Source of the DNA: Thermoflexales bacterium
GTDB taxonomy: Bacteria; Chloroflexota; Anaerolineae; Fen-1058
Reading direction: 5' to 3'
NCBI GenBank assembly: GCA_034434835.1
Contig: DAOTXX010000064.1
Location: 3,402-67,401, forward strand
Length of the DNA stretch: 64,000 nt
Shown piece by piece: positions 2,501 to 59,585 of this stretch (position 1 is its first letter; each line of letters opens with the position of its first letter). Below the pieces are notes generated by a model. That model saw nothing but the letters and a program-made list of their open reading frames with translations, was not told the DNA's origin and did no database searches. The position numbers and the translations under genes are program-made.

Positions 2501-5131
2501 TCACATCACTAGCTTCAAATCCGCGTAACAGTACGGCGTATAGACCAACCCCAGCACGTTGCGCTTGAGCAAAAGCTGCCAGCGCAGCTTTTGAATGGCT
2601 TTGCCAATTGGCTCGCCATTCAGAAACGCCTGGATCAACCCCTGCCCGAACTCGACGGCCAGCGGCTCAAAGACGGTGACCTCGGTGCCGATGATGCCTG
2701 ATGCCCCTGCCGCGCCAAACTCGGGCAGGAAATTCGAGAGCGCCTCCGGCGTGAACTCGACTGTGTGACAGCCATTGATGAACACAAGCGGGCGCACGTT
2801 GTTGAATCGCCAATGGTCTTCCAGCCCCAACCCGGAAAGATTCGACGGCACCAACTGATCGCCTTTGCCCACTGTCAGCCAGGGCTTTTTGCCGTCGGGC
2901 GTCGAGCCGCCGTGACAGTAAAAGTAACACAACTGCTGCGCTTGCTTCAGGCCCCCGTAAACTTTTTCCAGCTCGTCGGCCACGCTCGCCTCGCCATTCT
3001 TTTGCTTGATCTGCTTGACGATCCATTCTTGATGTGCCAGTCGGAGCTTGAAATCCTCGCCCACGTACACGTGGATCGTCACCTTAGGATGACCGCCGGC
3101 CTTGATTTCGCGCACGATCGAGGTCGGCTTGCCATCTTTTTTGATCACGCTCAACGGCTGCTCGACAATGTGCCGAAAGCCCCAAAAGCCTGCGAGGCAA
3201 ATCACGTTCGGGTCGTCGCCGTGCGAGCAGTGCACGCAGGAGGCCAGTCCCTCTTCTGGCGTCTTGAACTTGAGCGGCTCCAGACACACTTGATTCTTGT
3301 CACGATCGATCATCAAGCGCCGATCATAGATGCCATCCCATGGAAAGACAAAATCGCTCGAAAGCCGCGCGATTTGAATGACCGCCGAGGGCGTATCGGC
3401 GAGCGCCTGCCGCAGCTCGCGCGTCAAGTCAATCGTCTCTTCTCGATAGAACACGCTGCGGAACAGCGCGTTCCCCACATAAGCCAGCGTCTTGAGATCG
3501 TGGACGAATTGCTCCTGGCTGCCGGAATTGTCCGCGCCAAAGCGATAGCCTTCGTCGTCCCTGACGATGCCGAGCAGCCTGGCGCGGAACTCGGTGACGG
3601 CTTCTTTCATCTTGTCGCGGCCCACGTCGAGCGCGCCTTCGGTCTGCGTGCCGACCACGCCGATCATGTGCGTGCCATCCGGGTTGTCGTTGACCAAGAC
3701 GTTCACGCGGCGCTCTTGCAACTGCATGATGTCGGCCCAATCCTCGCTCAAGCTGTACTCGATCTCGGCCCAATTGCCGCGCTCGCCCCGGCCCAGCTTG
3801 CGCTCTTGCTCGTTTACCCGCGCGTGGAGCAGGATGGACTGGACGAGGTTGTTCTGGTAATAGAGGCCGATCCTCAAGCGAGCCTCCCGGGTCACCTCAC
3901 GGGGCGTGACCGCCAGGTGCAGTCGCCGGGTGGCTCCCGTTCTGAACAAACGCAATTCAGCCGTGTCTTGTTCAATGTCAAAATCGCGGCTGAACAGTTT
4001 GACCCGCAGGAGCAGACCTTGATCCGGGATAGGCGGCAGGTCAGGGTCAATCGGGCGCGGGGCGACGATGATGCTTTCGCGCAAGAGCGGCCCGATGTGC
4101 AGTTGCGCCCGGTAACGTTGCCCACGAGCCAGGGTGCGCTCGCGGATGAACGCTTCGCCGTCCTCCTGGTCGGTGAACCAGGTGTTGACGTAGCGTGCCC
4201 GCGCGTGGGTTTTCTCCAGCGTGGACGCCGAAACCTCTGGTGATTCATCGGCGGCCCGGGGGGAAGATGGAATTTCACGCGTGCGCGCCTGGTTCGCAAG
4301 CCTCTCATACGCTTGTCGAGTGCTGGTCAAGTCCATGCGCCAAGTCTCGTAGACTAGCGCAGGCAGGTTATCTTCTAGCGCCAACACAAGTTGCTGGATT
4401 TTGCCCGGGGCGCTCACGTCACTTGCAGGCATAGTGTTGATCGTGGGAATGGTGAGCGAATGTAGCGGCATTGCCAGCGGATCGGGCGCGCTCAGGCTCA
4501 CAACCTCCTGAGCCAACTGGCCCGCCTGGATCGCGCCATAGCGATCGGGATAGCGCACGATCACATACCAGTTTTCGTTGCCCTTGACCTCGCGCAGTGT
4601 GTCGAACACATCTCGGATAGTTCGGGTCGCAGACACGACGACGAAATCAGTGGTAGGGATCGCGGCAGTCGCCGCGGCGGCCGCCAGTTGCTCAAAAGCC
4701 GCTTTGGCATTTTGAAAATCCAAGATGGAAGGACGCAGTTGCTCAAATGCTATGGCGACTGGCCTGTCGCCTTCCAAGACTAGCGTGAGTGGGCGAATCT
4801 GATCCAGGCTGCCGGACGAACTCGGCACAGTGTTGATGGCAGGAATAGCCAACTCGCGCAGCGTCACGCCGAGCGCAGCCTGAATGCCCCGGCTGATGAC
4901 CATTTGCGCCAGCTTGCCCGCCGAGAGGCCGCCATAATGATCCGCGTACTGGACAATGACGCACCACCCGGAATTTGCCTGGGCGTCGGTCAGCCTGCGG
5001 AACACGTCGCCTACCGTCTCGGTTTCGGAAACGATGATGAAATCGCGCGAGAGCATTGCGTGCCACCCTAGCAGCTTGTCGGAGAGCAGGCTGGCCTCCC
5101 TATGCCAGCCCCTTGAAAACCGCCGACGCAT
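2501..5131 (-). CDS. Large CHAT-domain (caspase-like) protease with two N-terminal CBS-like repeats
   Basis: C-terminus has His (YFYCHGG) and Cys (LVFINGCHT) dyad, GASGIIGTEV...AFLNGEPIGKAIQKLR and terminal LGLVYTPYC, matching CHAT. Two ~110-aa N-terminal repeats (FIIVSETETVGDVF...VIVQYADHYGGLSAGKLAQ / FVVVSATRTIRDVF...VIVRYPDRYGAIQAGQLAQ) resemble CBS modules. Confidence 0.7.
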   Translation of the reverse strand: MRRRFSRGWHREASLLSDKLLGWHAMLSRDFIIVSETETVGDVFRRLTDAQANSGWCVIVQYADHYGGLSAGKLAQMVISRGIQAALGVTLRELAIPAINTVPSSSGSLDQIRPLTLVLEGDRPVAIAFEQLRPSILDFQNAKAAFEQLAAAAATAAIPTTDFVVVSATRTIRDVFDTLREVKGNENWYVIVRYPDRYGAIQAGQLAQEVVSLSAPDPLAMPLHSLTIPTINTMPASDVSAPGKIQQLVLALEDNLPALVYETWRMDLTSTRQAYERLANQARTREIPSSPRAADESPEVSASTLEKTHARARYVNTWFTDQEDGEAFIRERTLARGQRYRAQLHIGPLLRESIIVAPRPIDPDLPPIPDQGLLLRVKLFSRDFDIEQDTAELRLFRTGATRRLHLAVTPREVTREARLRIGLYYQNNLVQSILLHARVNEQERKLGRGERGNWAEIEYSLSEDWADIMQLQERRVNVLVNDNPDGTHMIGVVGTQTEGALDVGRDKMKEAVTEFRARLLGIVRDDEGYRFGADNSGSQEQFVHDLKTLAYVGNALFRSVFYREETIDLTRELRQALADTPSAVIQIARLSSDFVFPWDGIYDRRLMIDRDKNQVCLEPLKFKTPEEGLASCVHCSHGDDPNVICLAGFWGFRHIVEQPLSVIKKDGKPTSIVREIKAGGHPKVTIHVYVGEDFKLRLAHQEWIVKQIKQKNGEASVADELEKVYGGLKQAQQLCYFYCHGGSTPDGKKPWLTVGKGDQLVPSNLSGLGLEDHWRFNNVRPLVFINGCHTVEFTPEALSNFLPEFGAAGASGIIGTEVTVFEPLAVEFGQGLIQAFLNGEPIGKAIQKLRWQLLLKRNVLGLVYTPYCYADLKLVM

Positions 5132-16020: not shown

Positions 16021-17103
16021 ATGGATGACGAATCAGTAGGATTCTATTCATACGAGGCGCACGTCATGCCGCTGACCATGATCCGGCGTGAGCGGCGTCT
16101 GCCGATGCCGGGCGAAGTGATGGTCCGCCCCGGCGAGCGCGTTGAGCCGACGCAAGTTGTGGCGCGCGTTCACCAGACACAAGACTTTCGCATTATGGAC
16201 GTTGCGCGTGCCTTGCGTGTGCCACGCTCGCAGGTCAAGCGGTTCATGCTCAAAGAGGTCGGCGCGACCGTCGAAGTCAACCAACCCCTGGCGGCGCGCG
16301 GCGGGCTGTTTCGCCGGATCGTCCGCGCGCCGGCCAAGGGCGCGATCGTCGCCGTCGGCAATGGGCGGGTGCTGCTCGAAGTCGAGCCAGAGTTGGTCGA
16401 AGTGCGCGCTAACCTCACGGGCACCGTCATCGCCGTGACGCCGGGGCTGAGCGTCACGATCGAGACGCCCGGCGCGATTGTGCAGGGGATGTGGGGCTGC
16501 GGCGGCGAGGCGTTCGGCGTTTTGCGCGTCGTGGCCGAAAGGCGCGACGAGTCGCTGCGCGCCAAACATGTTGACGTGGCGTGTCACGGCGCCATCGTCA
16601 TCGGCGGCGGGACGATTGAGGCTTCGGCGTTGGAGCAGGCGCAGCAGCTCCAGGTGCGGGGGCTTATCGCTGGGAGCATGGAGGGCGAGATGCGCGCTCA
16701 GGCAGAAGCGATGCCGTTCCCCATTATCCTGACGGAAGGCTGGGGCCGTGTGCCGATGGCGGAGCCGATCTTTAACCTTCTCCAAGCCCAGACGGGCCGT
16801 GAAGCGTCCATCAGCGCCGAGACGCGCGCGCGCTTTAGTTTCAAGCGTCCCGAGATCCTCATCCCCTTGCCTACTGAAACCCGGCCCGCGCTTCCACCTC
16901 CGCCGGGCGCGCCGCTCTTTGTAGGAGCCAAAGTGCGCGTCGTGCGCCCGCCATACCTGGGTATGGTCGGCGTGGTTGCGGCGATCTCGCCTCAGGCTCA
17001 GCGTATAGCCAGTGGCGCGCGCGTGCGCGGCGTTGAGGTAGACCTGGGTGGAGATGCCGGCACCGTATTTGTGCCCTATGTCAATTTGGAGCTTTTGAGG
17101 TAA
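16021..17103 (+). CDS. Hypothetical protein (Gly/Val-rich beta-like segments)
   Basis: No recognisable catalytic motif; same strand, follows ATPase. Confidence 0.4.
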   Translation: MDDESVGFYSYEAHVMPLTMIRRERRLPMPGEVMVRPGERVEPTQVVARVHQTQDFRIMDVARALRVPRSQVKRFMLKEVGATVEVNQPLAARGGLFRRIVRAPAKGAIVAVGNGRVLLEVEPELVEVRANLTGTVIAVTPGLSVTIETPGAIVQGMWGCGGEAFGVLRVVAERRDESLRAKHVDVACHGAIVIGGGTIEASALEQAQQLQVRGLIAGSMEGEMRAQAEAMPFPIILTEGWGRVPMAEPIFNLLQAQTGREASISAETRARFSFKRPEILIPLPTETRPALPPPPGAPLFVGAKVRVVRPPYLGMVGVVAAISPQAQRIASGARVRGVEVDLGGDAGTVFVPYVNLELLR

Positions 17104-33666: not shown

Positions 33667-34359
33667 TCACGTAAGCTGCCGCAACACTGCGACGACTTTG
33701 CCCTGGATCTCGACATTGGCCGGGTCAACATAGATGGGTTTCATCGTCGGATTGGCCGGTTGCAGTCGGACGCGCGGCTTGGCACCTCGAGGTCTTTCGT
33801 AATAAAAATGCTTGAGAGTCGTTTCCTCTCGGTCTTTGAGCCACACGGCCACCATCTCGCCGTTGTGAGCTTCCTTCTGATATTTCATCACCACAATGTC
33901 ACCATCATTGATGAGCGCATCTATCATCGAATTGCCGCGCACCTCCAGCGCATACAAGTCTTCTTGCTCGCGGACGATGTCGCGCGTCAACTCGATCGCG
34001 CGGTCGCCCATCGGTGAAAAGTTGCTGCCCGGGATCGGGATCGGTTGACCGGCCGCGATCACACCGAGCACTGGCACCTGGAATTGGCTTGCGGCTTCTT
34101 GAACCGGGCCGATCCTCTGCAAGGGCATCGTGAACGGGTTGCCGTTGACGTCTTTGAGCAAGCGGATGCCGCGCGAAATCTCTTTGTCGCGCGCAATGTA
34201 CCCCATGCGCTCCAACACGTTGAGGTTATAGGCGACGACCGAAGTGGACGAGATGCCGCCCCCCTCCAAAATCTCGCGGACGCTGGGGGGATACGAGTGC
34301 CGACGGATGAACCGGGTAATGTACTCGATGATTGCACGCTGCTTGGCAGATAGAGCCAT
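33667..34359 (-). CDS. lexA: LexA repressor
   Basis: N-terminal wHTH, Ala-Gly cleavage region, S24 peptidase motifs (GNSM, K-containing VVMK). Confidence 0.85.
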   Translation of the reverse strand: MALSAKQRAIIEYITRFIRRHSYPPSVREILEGGGISSTSVVAYNLNVLERMGYIARDKEISRGIRLLKDVNGNPFTMPLQRIGPVQEAASQFQVPVLGVIAAGQPIPIPGSNFSPMGDRAIELTRDIVREQEDLYALEVRGNSMIDALINDGDIVVMKYQKEAHNGEMVAVWLKDREETTLKHFYYERPRGAKPRVRLQPANPTMKPIYVDPANVEIQGKVVAVLRQLT

Positions 34360-34421
34360 GGTGACCTCCTGATTTCCCAAAGAAAATCCCAAACGGTTTC
34401 CCAAGTTGGTCTTATTGTATC

Positions 34422-53272: not shown

Positions 53273-54358
53273 ATGATGAGATCCGTTCATCAACGTTTGC
53301 CTGCCGGCAAGCTGCTTCGCTGGGCGGCGCGCCATCTGCGCGATTTGCCCTGGCGCGTCGAGCCGCGCGATCCGTACCGCGTCTGGATCAGCGAGATCAT
53401 GCTTCAACAGACGCAAGTGGTCACAGTTATACCATACTTTCAGAGATTCATGGAACGCTTTCCCACTGTGCAGGCGCTGGCGGCAGCACCGCTCGACGAT
53501 GTACTCAAATTCTGGGAAGGCCTGGGGTACTATGCTCGCGCGCGCCACCTTCACCGTGCGGCGCGCAAGATCATGACGGAATTCGGCGGTCAACTGCCGG
53601 ATACTATAGAGGAGTTGCGCAAGCTGCCCGGCGTGGGGCGCTATACGGCTGGCGCGATTGCGAGCCTGGCCTTTGGGTGTGATGCGCCGGTCGTGGATGG
53701 CAACGTCAGGCGGGTGCTGTGTCGTCTTTACGCGGTTCGCGGTGATATTCGCCAACCCAGACTGGAGCGGAAGCTGTGGGCATTGGCCGAATGGAATCTG
53801 CCCAAGGGTAAAGCCGGTCGCTGGAATGAAGCGATGATGGAACTGGGCGCGACGGTTTGCGTACCGCGAGCGCCTCGTTGCGGCGAGTGCCCTTTGGCAA
53901 AAGTCTGCCGGGCGCGCGCGTCAGGCATCCAGGGGAAATTGCCCCAACGGGTCACCAGGAGACGACTTCCACACCACGATGTGACCGCGGCGATCATTTG
54001 GAAGCGCGGCCATGTGCTCATCGCTCAAAGACCGCTGGGCGGGATGCTGGGTGGCTTGTGGGAGTTTCCCGGTGGAAAGCGAGAACGCGGCGAGTCGCTG
54101 GAGGCTTGCCTGCAGCGCGAGATCCGAGAAGAGTTGGGAGTCGAGATCGAGGTCGGCCAGCGCGTGACACAGGTCGAGCACACCTACACTCACTTTCGCA
54201 TCACGCTGCACGCTTTCGAGTGTCGCCTGGTGCGAGGCCGTCCGCATGCACTTCAGGTGACCGCCTGGCGCTGGGCGCGTCTGGACGAGCTGGACCATTT
54301 CGCGTTCGCGGTGACCGATCGCAGAATCATCCGGGGATTGAAACAGAAGATGCCGTGA
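53273..54358 (+). CDS. mutY: A/G-specific adenine DNA glycosylase MutY with C-terminal NUDIX-like domain
   Basis: HhH-GPD LPGVGRYTAGAI, 4Fe-4S CxxxxxxCxxCxxxxxC (CVPRAPRCGECPLAKVC), NUDIX-like tail. Confidence 0.85.
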   Translation: MMRSVHQRLPAGKLLRWAARHLRDLPWRVEPRDPYRVWISEIMLQQTQVVTVIPYFQRFMERFPTVQALAAAPLDDVLKFWEGLGYYARARHLHRAARKIMTEFGGQLPDTIEELRKLPGVGRYTAGAIASLAFGCDAPVVDGNVRRVLCRLYAVRGDIRQPRLERKLWALAEWNLPKGKAGRWNEAMMELGATVCVPRAPRCGECPLAKVCRARASGIQGKLPQRVTRRRLPHHDVTAAIIWKRGHVLIAQRPLGGMLGGLWEFPGGKRERGESLEACLQREIREELGVEIEVGQRVTQVEHTYTHFRITLHAFECRLVRGRPHALQVTAWRWARLDELDHFAFAVTDRRIIRGLKQKMP

Positions 54359-55565
54359 CGTCCATTGGCAGCCACATCGCAAACATGCTGCCTCTGCCCG
54401 GCTCGCTGTTGAGCGTGATGCGTCCACCGTGTGCCAGGATGATCTTGGAAGCGATCGTCAGGCCCATCCCCAGCCCGCCGTATCGTCGCTGGTCACTCAT
54501 GTCCGCCTGGGTGAACACCTGAAAGATCGCGTGTTGTTTTTCGCTGGGAATGCCGGGGCCAGAATCTATGACGGCGATCACGGCGAAAGAAGCTGGTATC
54601 GGCTGGGTCCAGGGCGGCGCGGCCGGCCAATGTGCCGCCACGCGGACACGCCCACCCGGCGGCGTGAATTTGATCGCGTTGTCAAGCAGTTGGCCGAGCG
54701 CATGTTGCACGCGGGGCATATCAGCGGTGAGGACCAGGTCTTGTTGGGGCAGCGCAACTTCCAGGCGCAGCCTCTTTTTTTCGATTCGCAACCGCCACAG
54801 CTCGACCGTCGAGTTCACCAGCTCAAGCACGCTACACCTGCCCAATTCCAGCTTGAACTCGTTGCGGTCCAACTGGCTAAAGTCAAACAGATTGTCAATT
54901 TGCCGCCGGAGCCGCTGGCTCTGCGCCATCATATCCGCCAGATAGGCTTTGGCCCCCACAATCGAGCCTTGGTTGAGCTGTTCTTGCAACAAATCAGCCG
55001 TAAAGAACATCTGGGCCAGTGGCGTGCGCAATTCGTGCGAGGTGACCGAGACAAACTCGGCCTTCATCTGGTCCAGGCTCTTGAGCTGCTCGTAAGCCTC
55101 GCGCAGTTGCTCGGTCTGTTGTGCCACGCGCTGAGCCAGGCTGGCGTTGAGCGCGCGCAACTCTTCCATCAGTCGGCGGTTTTCCAGCGTCAGGCGTCGG
55201 TGCGAGAGCGCGTTTTGAACGACGTGATGCAGCTCATCGAGGTTTTCCACTGGTTTGAGCAAATAGTTGTAGGCGCCCTCGCGCAGCGCCCCAATCGCCG
55301 ATTCAACGGTGGGGTGCCCCGTGAGGATGATCACGGGGATGTCGCAATTGCACGCCTTGACTGCTTGCAGAACGCCCAGGCCATCCACATGGGGCATTTG
55401 CAGATCGGTAATGACCAGATCGAACGGCTGGGAATTGATCAACTCGATAGCCTTGCGGCCATCAGGGGCAGTTTGCACACGATAGCTGGCGCTCTTGAGA
55501 TAATCGGCCAGCATAGTGCGGATTTCCGCGCTATCGTCTGAGACGAGTATACTTTCGCCAGGCAT
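54327..55565 (-). CDS. Hybrid response regulator-histidine kinase (N-terminal REC, HisKA, HATPase_c)
   Basis: REC (LVITDLQMPHVDG), H-box VTSHELRTPL, N/G boxes. Confidence 0.8.
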   Translation of the reverse strand: MPGESILVSDDSAEIRTMLADYLKSASYRVQTAPDGRKAIELINSQPFDLVITDLQMPHVDGLGVLQAVKACNCDIPVIILTGHPTVESAIGALREGAYNYLLKPVENLDELHHVVQNALSHRRLTLENRRLMEELRALNASLAQRVAQQTEQLREAYEQLKSLDQMKAEFVSVTSHELRTPLAQMFFTADLLQEQLNQGSIVGAKAYLADMMAQSQRLRRQIDNLFDFSQLDRNEFKLELGRCSVLELVNSTVELWRLRIEKKRLRLEVALPQQDLVLTADMPRVQHALGQLLDNAIKFTPPGGRVRVAAHWPAAPPWTQPIPASFAVIAVIDSGPGIPSEKQHAIFQVFTQADMSDQRRYGGLGMGLTIASKIILAHGGRITLNSEPGRGSMFAMWLPMDVTASSVSIPG

Positions 55566-55657
55566 ATTGATCCTCGGCGGTGCAGCGAGCCTGAATTATA
55601 ACACAATTCAGGATATATCAGCCTGACGATCCCAGACAGTCGAGGGCGATGGCGTTC

Positions 55658-56026
55658 TTACCGCATAGACGAATCCAGTGCATCCTCGCCGATGACAGTG
55701 AATTGGCGAGGAGCCACCGCCGGGGGCATGGGGGCAAAAGACTGACTCGCTTGCGGCGGATTGACCATGGGCGGGGAAACAACAATGACTGGCGGGTACA
55801 TGGACTGCTGCGGCCCATGGCGCAGTGCACTCATCTCTTCCCGCTCGCGGCGGCGCAGGAGCGCCAGCCCAGCCACGAGGACCGCCGGCAACATCGCGCC
55901 GACGCCACACGCCGCACCTGTCAACACCGACATGGCCTCGTTCGACAGACGGGTGCCAATATACACGCCCAAAGTTACCGCAAATGCCGTCACGCCTAGT
56001 CCAATGATCGCAGTTACTCGATTCAT
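55658..56026 (-). CDS. Small membrane protein (2-3 TM) with Pro-rich C-terminal tail
   Basis: Hydropathy; 10 bp after FtsK-like gene, same strand. Confidence 0.4.
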   Translation of the reverse strand: MNRVTAIIGLGVTAFAVTLGVYIGTRLSNEAMSVLTGAACGVGAMLPAVLVAGLALLRRREREEMSALRHGPQQSMYPPVIVVSPPMVNPPQASQSFAPMPPAVAPRQFTVIGEDALDSSMR

Positions 56027-56036
56027 GCGACACCTC

Positions 56037-57248
56037 TCAACTTGCTCCAGCCAAAACCGACACCGCCTGATGTAACAGGCTGGGCCGCCCACGAAGGATA
56101 TCCCAGCGCTGAGGAACGCTGCCCATCTGCGCCACCACTTGCTCCATCTCCGCCACACTCACGAAAGCGGCCTGGAAGCGAATCACCTGTCCAGTCGCTA
56201 TAGCGAGAAAATCTCCGCGACCGGCAAGCTTTTCTGCTCCTGTCCCTCCGATACCTGCTGCAACACGCGCATCCTCGGGCGAGACGACTTTGCCCACCAA
56301 CCTCACCGGAAAATTGGCGCGGATGAGCGTCCCGATCACCTGGGACGATGGCTTTTGCGTGCAAGCGATGACATGAACCCCTGCCTCACGCCCGCGCTGA
56401 ACTAGCCGTGTCAGCGGATCGGCGATGGCCTTGCCTGCCACTTGCATCAAGTCTGCCAACTCATCCAGCACAACAACGATGCGCGGCTCGACGCTCCCAT
56501 GATCCACTCTCTTCTCTCTACCCTCTTCTCTCTTCTCTCGTCTCAACCCCCTGGCCTCCATCAGCCGCACCAACTCATCCAGTGCGCCAGCCGCTTCCAT
56601 CGCGTCACCTATGATTGGCCTCATCAGGTGCGGCAATGCTGCAAACGGCACAAAAGCTCTCCGCTTGGGATCAATCAGGACAAGCTGCAACTGACTGCGC
56701 CGGTGCGTCATTGCCAGACTCAAGATCATGGCCTGGCACAATACCGTCTTGCCCGAGCCGGTCGTGCCAGAGATCAGGACATGCGCCACATCGGGGGCAG
56801 GCAACCGAAGCAAGAGCGGAGCGCCATCGTCGCACATGCCCAGCACGGCTGTCCCCGATGACATCCTTGGCAGAGCTTCAAAACCGGACTTGGCTCGCGC
56901 ATCGGCCAACCGCGCCATAAGCGGCAGCAGTTTGATGGGTTGAGCATCCTCGCGCGGGATTTCCAGTTGCAGCGTACCGCACAGCCCTAGCGCATAGCCC
57001 GGGGCTATGCGATGCACTGCTGAGGCTGCGCGCGACACACGCACACTGGCAACGCCCAAAGCCAACGCCAGTTCATCTGCCAAGGCCTGCACTTGAGCGA
57101 TGCGTGTGCCGGCCGCCGGAGCAAGATGGAATTGTACCACGCGCGGCGTGACAATGCCTCCGGTGACGCGCCCCGGTGCTTTGTGACTCGCCAGCACCAT
57201 CTCGATCCGATCTGACTCTAGTTCCAGTTGTTTGCGTGTCGTGCTCAT
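56037..57248 (-). CDS. Soluble FtsK/SpoIIIE-family DNA translocase motor (alpha+beta domains only; no membrane or gamma domain)
   Basis: FtsK alpha-like N-terminus, Walker A GTTGSGKTV, Walker B VVVLDELADLM; 403 aa; low-complexity REKREEGREKR insert. Confidence 0.7.
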   Translation of the reverse strand: MSTTRKQLELESDRIEMVLASHKAPGRVTGGIVTPRVVQFHLAPAAGTRIAQVQALADELALALGVASVRVSRAASAVHRIAPGYALGLCGTLQLEIPREDAQPIKLLPLMARLADARAKSGFEALPRMSSGTAVLGMCDDGAPLLLRLPAPDVAHVLISGTTGSGKTVLCQAMILSLAMTHRRSQLQLVLIDPKRRAFVPFAALPHLMRPIIGDAMEAAGALDELVRLMEARGLRREKREEGREKRVDHGSVEPRIVVVLDELADLMQVAGKAIADPLTRLVQRGREAGVHVIACTQKPSSQVIGTLIRANFPVRLVGKVVSPEDARVAAGIGGTGAEKLAGRGDFLAIATGQVIRFQAAFVSVAEMEQVVAQMGSVPQRWDILRGRPSLLHQAVSVLAGAS

Positions 57249-57310
57249 GCGCCATCCCTCCCAGGCTTCAGCCTGTGCGCTCTGAAAGAAATTGCCCTAA
57301 GTACATTATA

Positions 57311-57324
57311 AGAACATTTGTTCT
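57311..57324. promoter_or_regulatory. SOS box AGAACATTTGTTCT embedded between -35 TTGACA and -10 TATAAT of the FtsK-like gene promoter
   Basis: Minus-strand read CTTGACAATTAGAACAAATGTTCTTATAATG about 60 bp upstream of start 57248. Confidence 0.55.
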
Positions 57325-57330
57325 AATTGT

Positions 57331-57372
57331 CAAGAAGATAAAGAGGCATCGTTTGAGGGAGACGATGCCTCC
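57331..57372 (-). terminator. Intrinsic terminator after rpsT
   Basis: GAGGCATCGTCTCCCTCAAACGATGCCTC + UUUAUCUUCUU on minus strand. Confidence 0.5.
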
Positions 57373-57390
57373 AAATCGAGTCAGGTGAAT

Positions 57391-57663
57391 CTACCTGGAC
57401 TGCGACAACTGATGAAGCTGCTTCATCAAACGCGCCTTGCGCCGGGCCGCATTGTTTTTATGAATGACGCCCTTGCCCGCCGCATGATCCAGCTCGCTGA
57501 TCGCTTGCTGGAGAGCTAGCCTGGCCTCATCAGGCTTGTTTTCGCTGAGCGCAAGGCGAGCTTTTTTGACGGCTGTGCGCGCACGACTGCGCACGACGCG
57601 GTTGCGTTCCCGCTTCCGTGCGGAACTGCGGATGCGCTTGATAGCGGACTTGATGTTAGCCAA
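57391..57663 (-). CDS. rpsT: 30S ribosomal protein S20
   Basis: [21 protein letters not shown]... full-length match. Confidence 0.9.
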
Positions 57664-57775
57664 CGGAACCTCCAGAATAGCTGTGAGCCTTATACTGCGG
57701 GCGCGGAGTATACCCGATGTCGCCGGATTTGTCCAGCCGTGATTCAGATGTTATAATCGTCAAAGGGGGCAGAGA

Positions 57776-58063
57776 ATGAAACTGTCATTGGCAGAAGTCG
57801 AGCACATTGCGGAACTCGCCAAGCTCTCGCTTTCCGACGAGGAGAAAGCGCGTTACCAGGAGCAGCTCTCTGCGATCCTGGAATACGCTGGACGGCTGCA
57901 GGTGGTGGACACCTCAGCGATCCCGCCGACGGCCACGGTGCTGCCTTTGCGCAACGTGATGCGCGCCGACGAGCCGCGCGATTCCATGAGTCGCGAGGAC
58001 GTGTTGGCCAACGCGCCACAGGCTGGGGCCGATTCCTTCCAAGTCCAGGCGGTGCTGGATTGA
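57776..58063 (+). CDS. gatC: Asp/Glu-tRNA amidotransferase subunit C
   Basis: [28 protein letters not shown]... Confidence 0.85.
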
Positions 58064-58085
58064 TCCTTGCCCAGGTGATCTCAAG

Positions 58086-59585
58086 TTGACGGCCCTCTGC
58101 GATCTGACTATCCACGAAGCGATGGATCGGCTGTGGCATGGCGAGCTAACCTCGGTCGAGCTGACGCAAGCTGTGTTGGACCGGATCGTCGCAGTCGAAA
58201 ACCAGATTCAGGCCTACCTGACGCTCGCGCCTGAGCTGGCATTGGAACAGGCTCGCGAAGCCGATGAGCGTCGCGCTCGCGGCGAGGATACGCCGCTGTT
58301 GGGCATTCCGCTAGCAATCAAGGATGTCGTGTGCGTCGAGGGCCTGCCTTGCACGTGCGGCAGCCGCATTTTGGAAGAGTTTGTGCCTCCGTACAATGCG
58401 ACTGTCGTCGAGCGATTGCGCGCGGCGGGCTGTGTGATCCTGGGCAAAACCAACATGGACGAGTTTGCAATGGGTTCGTCCACCGAAAACTCGGCGTTCT
58501 TTCCAACACGCAACCCGTGGGACTTGGATCGTGTACCCGGCGGGTCATCGGGGGGAAGCGCCGCGGCGGTCGCCTCCGGCATGGCGCTCGGCGCGCTCGG
58601 CACCGATACGGGAGGAAGCATCCGCCAACCTGCGTCGTTGTGCGGCGTAGTGGGCATCAAGCCCAGTTATGGCCGTGTGAGCCGCTATGGACTCGTCGCC
58701 TTTGCGTCATCGCTCGACCAGATCGGCCCGTTTGCGCGCGATGTGCGCGATGCAGCAATCCTGCTTAGCATCATCGCTGGACACGACCCACGCGATTCCA
58801 CTTCGATGCCATTGCCCGTGCCCGATTACGTCAGCGCGCTGAATGCGGACCACTTGCAGGGCATCCGCATCGGCGTGCCGCGTGAGTATTTCGTCGCCGG
58901 GGTGCAGCCGGAGGTGGCCAAAGCCGTCCAGGCGGCGATCGAGGTGATGCGCGGGCTGGGCGCGCAGGTGCGCGAGGTGAGTTTGCCGCATACTGACTAT
59001 GGCCTGCCCGTGTATTACATCATCGCGCCGGCCGAAGCCTCGGCTAACCTGGCACGTTATGACGGCATGCGCTATGGCCTGCGTGTCCAATCGCCCGAAG
59101 GGATGTGGGAGACCTATCGCCAAACGCGCGGCGCAGGCTTTGGCAGCGAGGTCAAGCGGCGGATTATGCTGGGGACGTATGCACTCAGCGCGGGTTACTA
59201 TGACGCCTACTATCTCAAGGCACAACAAGTTCGCACGCTCATCAAAGGCGATTTCGACGCCGTGTTCGATGCGGTGGATGTGATCGCCTGTCCGGTAGCG
59301 CCGACGACCGCATTCAAGATCGGCGAAAAGGTGGATGACCCACTGCAAATGTATCTTTCGGATGTGTTTACGCTGAACTGCAACCTGGCCGGCATTTGCG
59401 GCATCAGTCTGCCGTGCGGCTTTGACCAGGATCATTTGCCGATTGGCTTGCAGCTCTTGGGGCCGGCGTTCGGCGAAGAGATCGTGCTGCGCGTGGCGCA
59501 TGCTTACGAGCAAGCCACCGAATGGCATACATACAGGCCGCAGATCCCGGCAAGCCTTGAACAGGAACAAGCTCTCGACGATTGA
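58086..59585 (+). CDS. gatA: Asp/Glu-tRNA amidotransferase subunit A (amidase signature)
   Basis: [12 protein letters not shown] amidase signature; TTG start. Confidence 0.9.

Follow-up and report, generated by a model that had tools for sequence, protein, structure and literature searches.

A predicted LexA-controlled operon of an FtsK-like motor and a small membrane protein in Chloroflexota

What is the role of an FtsK-type motor that has neither the membrane anchor nor the gamma domain of canonical FtsK, and why should its gene lie behind a LexA-type operator and beside a gene for a small membrane protein? These questions are raised by a locus in a 64,000-nt stretch of contig DAOTXX010000064.1 from a Thermoflexales bacterium (Chloroflexota), analysed as a whole and referred to here as the window. 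Unless a related locus is named, all coordinates are those of the window, and the features of the motor operon, rpsT and lexA are all on its minus strand. We read the motor gene and the gene downstream of it, whose product is called the partner, as a LexA-repressed bicistronic operon for a two-part, membrane-tethered translocase of double-stranded DNA (dsDNA), and judging from the sequence evidence given below we put the probability of this reading at about 0.55. In the literature and the curated families searched, no description of a LexA-linked motor-partner pair was found, the motor itself being a member of the known FtsK/SpoIIIE superfamily.

The motor gene is preceded by a promoter that matches the sigma-70-type consensus at 12 of 12 positions, with a 17-nt spacer, and that lies directly after a terminator-like hairpin of rpsT; the motor open reading frame (ORF) starts about 50 nt downstream. 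The spacer, ATTAGAACAAATGTTCT, consists of ATT followed by AGAACAAATGTTCT, a perfect 14-nt palindrome which occupies its 3' end and abuts the -10 hexamer. A first, sequence-only reading of this DNA had placed a LexA box in the spacer of a TTGACA/TATAAT promoter before a 403-aa motor, and both the promoter and the palindrome bear it out. The core of the palindrome, GAAC-N4-GTTC, is the motif attributed to LexA of the Chloroflexi by Fernandez de Henestrosa (2002), as cited in PMC4951493. The window also contains a lexA gene, whose product is the presumed repressor of the motor-partner operon and in which a DNA-binding N-terminus, an AAG cleavage region, the serine of GNSM and the lysine of TLKHF can be read from the sequence. 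Its operator, AGAACTGATGTTCT, sits inside the 17-nt spacer of lexA's own promoter. The motor box had been described as of the same type and at the same distance as that of lexA; the type and the location in a 17-nt spacer hold, but the position is shifted by 2 nt relative to the hexamers.

These two sites, at the motor operon and the lexA promoter, are the only perfect GAAC-N4-GTTC boxes in the 64 kb. Their number alone is not significant (two perfect 12-mers against 0.91 expected, with at least two in 22 of 100 shuffled sequences), and boxes with one mismatch, 16 against 24 expected, are at or below chance, so that no further LexA sites are supported in the window. The significance of the two boxes comes instead from their placement, since both lie in promoter spacers and one of them at lexA, and from conservation in relatives.

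A scan of species-representative genomes found at least 80 related loci (44-54% identity among the matches listed, which do not include the closest relatives). A perfect box lies no more than 300 bp upstream of the motor gene in 37 of 78 loci, and within about 2.5 kb upstream in 68 of the 77 with adequate upstream sequence, the distant boxes being due to the location of lexA upstream of the motor. In all, 672 kb of related loci contain 135 perfect boxes, where composition predicts 8.8 (a 15-fold excess); 132 are upstream of the motor gene and 3 downstream. An extended motif built from the 132 sites, T-A-GAAC-(A/G)-N-N-T-GTTC-T, is matched by the window operator, and the boxes are often found in tandem, 28-35 bp apart. 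In 31 loci lexA, on the same strand, is the direct upstream neighbour of the motor gene, and 12 of these loci have two lexA genes there; the lexA genes of related loci share 32-60% identity with window LexA. Conservation of the box upstream of orthologues had been proposed as a check and was found on this scale. The comparison strongly supports the predicted SOS wiring of the motor-partner operon, and with it the earlier claim of a motor and a membrane protein encoded together behind a LexA-type operator.

The close relatives of the window have 70-75% protein identity (related loci are cited by L numbers); in L085 and L090, among those at 73-75%, TTGACA-NNN-AGAACAAATGTTC-G-TATAAT forms an island in diverged intergenic DNA. 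L091 keeps the window-type promoter and box, and L088 has the same arrangement with one mismatch; in L093 the box is just 3' of the -10 hexamer, and in L081 it is 387 nt upstream of the motor, before an extra ORF. Tandem lexA paralogues occur in L003, L004, L013, L017, L020, L023, L027, L036, L038, L049, L060 and L064, the second copy being 32-56% identical to window LexA; in L027 (lexA genes at 2572-3216 and 3349-3963) the second keeps the LexA DNA-binding and S24 peptidase domains. The gene order in L020 is lexA, an EAD7-like gene, lexA2, motor and partner.

The motor belongs to the FtsK/SpoIIIE superfamily (PF01580 and PF17854), with Pfam matches to FtsK_alpha at residues 3-73 (44.5 bits, cutoff 22.9) and to FtsK_SpoIIIE at residues 153-301 (122 bits, cutoff 24). 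The polypeptide begins directly at the alpha domain and contains no transmembrane segment (no 19-aa window reaches a Kyte-Doolittle value of 1.6), and Pfam finds no Ftsk_gamma domain (PF09397) in it or in the motors of L020, L027 and L079, which come from other classes. These Pfam and hydropathy results agree with the earlier description of a motor with alpha and beta domains and without membrane anchor or gamma; by its domain content, it is a complete alpha-beta motor and nothing else. Walker A (GTTGSGKT, G161-T168, with K167), Walker B (D262-E263) and the arginine-finger equivalent (R287) are invariant or nearly so in the family. In a phmmer search of the PDB, residues 31-374 align with the Pseudomonas aeruginosa FtsK motor 2IUU (E 7e-46). 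The AlphaFold2 (AF2) model of the motor (mean confidence score, pLDDT, 70.9) has 2IUT and 6T8B as its top Foldseek matches, over about 408 columns with 32-33% identity and TM-scores of 0.6-0.68; TcpA, which comes next after FtsK, and EccC match it far less well, and after residue 376 it contains only a low-confidence linker and one helix. In NCBIfam the motor has only sub-threshold matches, to FtsK, EccC, EssC and TraB.

Residues of P. aeruginosa FtsK named in a cryo-electron microscopy study of FtsK on DNA (PMC7321959) were mapped onto the motor through the phmmer alignment to 2IUU. The arginine finger R620 corresponds to R287; R632 and K643 of loop II correspond to K299 and R310; R661 and K657 of loop I correspond to R328 and P324, the latter nearly invariant in the family; and K377 and R380 of the alpha ring correspond to R49 and Q52 (Lys in most homologues). 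As the fold is kept, together with both Walker motifs, the arginine finger and most basic residues of the pore loops, we infer a probable motor activity.

A protein search returned thousands of motor homologues. Nearly all of the best 120, from which identities and lengths were taken, are 330-470 aa long, apart from a few partial gene calls, and share 60-100% identity with the window motor, with conserved blocks separated by variable loops. The word "truncated", applied earlier to the motor, had to be dropped, as the form of about 360-430 aa is the conserved state of a large Chloroflexota family constantly paired with a membrane protein. A truncated pseudogene was likewise rejected, since the short form is conserved, with its motifs intact, across thousands of homologues.

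The partner has two hydrophobic segments and a 66-aa Pro-rich tail with 11 prolines. In the AF2 model, residues 3-26 and 29-69 form a helical hairpin with a pLDDT of about 90, and the tail is disordered (pLDDT below 50). The sequence-only reading had described a protein with two to three transmembrane segments, encoded 10 bp after the motor and ending in a Pro-rich tail; the gap and the tail were right, whereas the segments number two and not three. In alignments of the partner, G37, G41 and P47 are invariant in the hydrophobic helices and are followed by an Arg-rich stop-transfer stretch (RRRERE), and the Pro/Gln-rich tail has two conserved motifs, Y77-P-P-V-I-V-V and, near the C-terminus, R107-x-F-x-V-I-G113-(E/D). 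By the positive-inside rule, both termini and the conserved tail are probably cytoplasmic. The partner reached no Pfam (LysM included), NCBIfam, PADLOC or PHROG family, and its 106 homologues are unnamed, hypothetical or evidently mislabelled with unrelated functions.

By record title all 80 loci listed are from Chloroflexota except L072 ("bacterium"), and they include Anaerolineae, Caldilineae, Thermoflexales, Ardenticatenia and Chloroflexia. With a profile made from the partner alignment, 81 of 87 loci proved to have the partner downstream of the motor and on its strand, the six exceptions ending too early; it is present in 81 of the 81 loci with enough downstream sequence, and 73 of these 81 chromosomal partners have the R-x-F-x-V-I-G motif. 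Some assemblies carry two copies of the module on different contigs (L008 and L023 in JAXLWI01, L006 and L007 in DSDT01, L032 and L038 in JBHHXL01, L051 and L064 in JACKAT01), and in at least three of them one copy follows lexA and the second, apart from lexA, has a box of its own. In both Chloroflexia-labelled contigs examined, L079 and L080, the motor (L079 3998-5719) is extended at its C-terminus by a highly charged stretch of about 190 aa, the partner (L079 5755-6540) is twice as long with a Tyr/Pro/Glu-rich tail, and the upstream boxes are one-mismatch variants (e.g. with GCAC or GTAC half-sites).

Further genes accompany the pair in related loci. 1) A soluble protein of about 80 aa is encoded between motor and partner in nine loci (L004, L013, L017, L019, L027, L033, L043, L049 and L058); these proteins, about 80 aa or longer (e.g. 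L027 5135-5377), start with M-x-L-D-(I/V)-W-(F/Y)-x-x-D-I-x-x-A-L, end near A-L-A-F-G-L and belong to no family. 2) A gene for SRAP, an SOS response-associated peptidase (Pfam E 3e-70), is found at the same place in 4 loci (L021, L022, L028 and L030; e.g. L021 5064-5744), in which the LexA box is about 33 nt upstream of the motor gene. 3) A DUF6504 gene follows the partner in at least 16 loci, and a protein of about 90 aa with the motif W-F-D-N-D and no family ("WFDND") is encoded after the partner in at least 27. Examples of the latter two are L027 5802-6062 and 6078-6350, L020 5804-6124, L081 5684-6318 and L093 4146-4651. To judge from their positions, the DUF6504 and WFDND genes extend the LexA-linked cluster in other lineages, as in L027, where the order is lexA1, lexA2, a 35-nt gap, motor, 80-aa protein, partner, DUF6504 and WFDND. 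In L081, DinB-family genes lie downstream of the module; like the SRAP genes, they count in favour of the predicted SOS wiring. The window contains none of the DUF6504, WFDND, 80-aa or SRAP genes; a weak tblastn match of an accessory gene at 16258-16416 was dismissed, as it is antisense within a real gene.

The positions of the window features are collected in Table 1. The terminator-like hairpin of rpsT has the stem GAGGCATCG / CGATGCCTC and an 11-nt loop and is followed by TTTATCTTC; it was read from the sequence and did not appear in the automated hairpin scan, which allowed loops of 3-8 nt only. L085 and L090, which have the rpsT-motor-partner synteny of the window, show clear GC hairpins and T-runs at the matching position, and this hairpin is the predicted upstream boundary of the motor-partner operon. 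The GAGG in the gap between the two genes is consistent with their co-transcription and coupled translation. Since the hybrid kinase gene that comes next has its own TATAAT and the gene at that position varies among relatives, the transcription unit is taken to consist of two genes.

Table 1. Features of the motor-partner operon, its neighbours and lexA in the 64,000-nt window
Feature	Position	Strand	Remarks
rpsT	57391-57663	-	upstream neighbour of motor operon
Terminator-like hairpin 3' of rpsT	57343-57371, T-rich run to 57334	-	read from sequence
-35 hexamer TTGACA	57333-57328	-	promoter scan
Putative LexA operator AGAACAAATGTTCT	57324-57311 (core GAAC-N4-GTTC 57312-57323)	-	sequence
-10 hexamer TATAAT	57310-57305	-	promoter scan
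Ribosome-binding site GGGAGGG, motor gene	57256-57262	-	7 nt before ATG
ftsK-like motor gene, 403 aa	56037-57248	-	stop TGA 56039-56037
Ribosome-binding site GAGG, partner gene	56033-56036	-	within 10-nt intergenic gap
Partner gene, 122 aa	55658-56026	-	ATG 56026, 10 nt after motor stop
Response-regulator/histidine-kinase hybrid gene	54327-55565	-	next gene after partner
lexA promoter	TTGACA 34442-34437, C, AGAACTGATGTTCT 34435-34422, GA, TACAAT 34419-34414	-	sequence
lexA	ORF 33667-34404, probable start ATG 34359 (MALSAKQ...)	-	ORF and translation

Two small features of the same region were also seen. The 5' leader of the motor gene contains a small hairpin, CAGGC-TGAA-GCCTG (57264-57277, minus strand), immediately ahead of the ribosome-binding site, and L085 has a similar one, GGGCTGAAGGCTT, at the equivalent place; an Rfam scan of 54000-59000 found no RNA element at E <= 0.1. 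An 8-bp inverted repeat, CCTGAATT-N7-AATTCAGG (55590-55612, minus strand), encloses the TATAAT at 55600-55595 upstream of the hybrid kinase gene and may be an operator for that gene.

The pair is not confined to chromosomes, a point absent from the sequence-only reading. A scan of IMG/VR found it on 11 contigs (L094-L102, L104 and L105; 34-54% identity), none of which has a LexA box or lexA. Genes nearby encode integrases, ParA, ParM-like actins, a DNA methylase, HNH, VRR-NUC-like and SNF2 proteins. L102 and L104 have the two genes of the pair in the opposite order, partner first. A neighbour-joining tree of 101 sequences over 355 columns has IMG/VR copies as its deepest branches, with L094-L098 nested in one chromosomal subclade; as it is midpoint-rooted and without support values, its direction is only suggestive. 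Curated plasmid and phage collections yielded only generic FtsK relatives with at most 35% identity. As the distribution of boxes indicates, the chromosomal Chloroflexota copies are wired to LexA, whereas the mobile-element copies are not. The C-terminal motif of the partner is found, exact or as a close variant, in most IMG/VR copies, which speaks for a contact with the motor inherited alongside it and against one with a host-specific division protein.

From these data, the following mechanism can be proposed. In the undamaged cell, a LexA dimer on AGAACAAATGTTCT, between the -35 and -10 hexamers, would block RNA polymerase, as predicted from the motif and its conservation. DNA damage would lead to RecA-stimulated self-cleavage of LexA, a step expected because window LexA keeps the cleavage and catalytic motifs, and the strong promoter would then fire. 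A single mRNA would give i) a soluble FtsK alpha-beta ATPase, expected to form a dsDNA-pumping hexameric ring, and ii) a hairpin protein with two transmembrane segments, the disordered Pro-rich tail of which would recruit the motor to the membrane through its two short motifs. The partner would replace the N-terminal anchor and linker of canonical FtsK, the pair being a split FtsK; this role is suggested because the pairing is obligate and the motifs are conserved. Its likeliest job would be to move or clear chromosomal DNA at the membrane or septum during repair and segregation of damaged chromosomes, a parallel to the SOS-induced ftsK of E. coli and to the septal targeting of SffA by SmeA (see below). 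A damage-induced chromosome-clearing or division-checkpoint module had been suggested earlier and is plausible. Lacking gamma, the motor would have no sequence-guided direction and would not activate XerD.

Several observations weigh against such a chromosome-clearing, LexA-repressed translocase. The lysine K657 of loop I is replaced by the near-invariant Pro324, so that the grip on DNA may differ from that of FtsK, and AF2 confidence is low at motor residues 314-346, which include loop I. The close relatives L092 and L083 have no box, and a perfect box is missing from the region fetched in 9 of the 77 loci with adequate upstream sequence; six of these nine have one or two boxes with a single mismatch. 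In the tree, box-less, mobile-element-like copies branch off deepest, and the ancestral role may have been DNA transfer rather than chromosome clearing. As regards L092, a second, different FtsK_SpoIIIE protein (445 aa, with an AAA_19 match) and two small ORFs are encoded directly upstream of the module (336-2493) and are preceded by a DNA methylase fragment, with no LexA box in the fetched sequence; these upstream genes may be an insertion that displaced the promoter.

The same mobile-element copies lend themselves to another explanation, in which the pair is a conjugation-type dsDNA transfer module like Streptomyces TraB or clostridial TcpA, the chromosomal copy being domesticated or that of a resident element, and LexA control being either the usual SOS induction of mobile elements or a means of damage-triggered exchange within filaments. 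It would account for the integrase, partition-type, methylase and nuclease-like genes beside the IMG/VR copies, for the deep branches of these copies and the nesting of some in a chromosomal subclade, for TcpA as the next-best structural match after FtsK, and for the absence of the gamma domain, which ties canonical FtsK to chromosome-specific functions. NCBIfam adds a weak TraB match (NF041214, E 1e-12), but at 47 bits against a cutoff of 800, and the motor has no C-terminal winged-helix DNA-recognition domain. Moreover, the window pair is in a conserved chromosomal setting (rpsT, motor, partner) and lacks integrase, partition or replication genes in its vicinity, chromosomal copies are found across all five groups named above, often in the lexA operon, as would be expected of a host-like function, and it is the mobile-element copies that lack LexA boxes. 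We consider a transfer module unlikely, although it comes through the evidence better than any other alternative.

Rather less probable is a division checkpoint, with the partner as the Chloroflexota SOS division inhibitor, in the role of YneA, ChiZ, DivS, SosA or SidA, and the motor regulating or assisting it, for instance by sensing DNA trapped in the septum. In its favour, the partner is a small membrane protein putatively under LexA control, and its gene is often a neighbour of lexA; YneA, ChiZ and DivS are likewise encoded near lexA. No SOS division inhibitor or damage-specific translocase for Chloroflexota was found in the literature searched, and the pairing is constant in all 81 loci that could reveal it. 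However, no ATPase takes part in the action of the known inhibitors, which work alone; the partner contains neither LysM nor any other Pfam domain, and its tail, probably cytoplasmic by the positive-inside rule, differs from the extracytoplasmic domains of YneA and ChiZ. Conservation of the tail motifs in mobile-element copies also fits contact with the motor better than contact with a host divisome.

A bolder version of the transfer idea, which we regard as improbable, is that the pair is a domesticated mobile-element pump placed under LexA and used for damage-induced exchange of dsDNA across membranes within a filament or community. Chromosomal DNA would then be imported or exported, e.g. 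as a repair template, in a conjugation-like exchange by a two-part motor without gamma.

It is very unlikely that the ring acts on another substrate, either removing proteins or DNA-protein crosslinks from damaged DNA or, like EccC/EssC of type VII secretion, exporting protein. SRAP is reported to form DNA-protein crosslinks at abasic sites, and the SRAP gene between motor and partner in 4 loci would fit the former; EccC and EssC are detectable relatives of the motor, which has a proline in place of loop I K657. On the other hand, most DNA-contacting basic residues are kept, the match to FtsK (32-33% identity, full length) is far better than that to EccC/EssC (16-25%, partial), the single ATPase domain is not the multi-domain type VII architecture, and none of the ORFs inspected around the module was recognised as WXG100-type or otherwise of type VII. 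Finally, a fortuitous box before a constitutive operon, which the chance-level count of two perfect 12-mers in the window would allow, is hardly credible given the 15-fold excess in related loci, nearly all of it upstream of the motor, the adjacent lexA in 31 loci, and the retention of the box in the promoter spacers of relatives while the flanking DNA diverges.

If LexA control holds, the LexA-repressed motor and its partner would be a DNA pump that ranks among the most consistently LexA-linked gene pairs in a large, poorly studied phylum, and in many lineages they share an operon with lexA. They would offer a handle on how Chloroflexota, many of which are filamentous, couple DNA damage to chromosome handling or division. 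Since mobile elements carry copies that lack the box, one may also ask in which direction the module passed between chromosomes and elements.

Several known systems resemble the pair in part. Mycobacteriophages have short proteins (e.g. Optimus gp193) annotated as FtsK-like DNA translocases, which match residues 27-398, or 92%, of the motor, but with only 32% identity, and PHROGs holds no family for a partner with two transmembrane segments. A PADLOC defence system was rejected, as the SspH and mad8 matches cover only the shared FtsK-like ATPase region (for the SspH profile, positions 1517-1764 of 1766) and nothing was matched by the partner; none of the ORFs listed around the module was recognised as an Ssp or Dnd gene. 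Type VII EccC and EssC have several ATPase domains in tandem, and the motor, with a single one, scores 55-85 bits against their cutoffs of 346-778. Streptomyces TraB and TcpA of pCW3 share the FtsK-type ring ATPase fold, but TcpA is only 16-19% identical to the motor, and, unlike in these proteins, the transmembrane segments of the pair are on a separate protein and the window copy is chromosomal and predicted to be under LexA control. The SOS division inhibitors YneA, ChiZ, DivS, SosA and SidA are alike in being small membrane proteins behind a LexA box, commonly beside lexA; the partner differs from them in having no sequence or domain similarity, a hairpin of two transmembrane segments, a probably cytoplasmic tail and an ATPase always at its side.

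In gene arrangement, the pair can be likened to SmeA-SffA of Streptomyces, where neighbouring genes encode a small membrane protein and an FtsK-like ATPase and the membrane protein is needed to place the ATPase; SmeA is described as targeting SffA to sporulation septa (PMC4255298; Ausmees 2007). The order of smeA-sffA, partner then motor, is that of the mobile-element loci L102 and L104 and the reverse of that in the window. Moreover, smeA-sffA is developmentally regulated, is restricted to streptomycetes and a few relatives, and in S. venezuelae is down-regulated, not induced, by mitomycin C (PMC9380542). A further likeness is to FtsK itself, a septal dsDNA translocase. The alpha and beta domains match those of the E. 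coli and P. aeruginosa proteins end to end, with Walker A/B, the arginine finger and most basic pore-loop residues kept, and the ftsK gene of E. coli is SOS-induced from the dinH promoter (PMC4080785), a control predicted also for the window operon. In contrast to FtsK, the window motor has no N-terminal transmembrane domain, linker or gamma, carries Pro324 at the place of K657, and scores 130 bits against the cutoff of 1566 for the canonical equivalog in NCBIfam (PRK10263); the anchor and Pro-rich linker, if supplied at all, come from a separate downstream gene. This division into a bare motor and a separate anchor and linker would make the pair a natural minimal system for the contributions of the anchor, the linker and the missing gamma domain.

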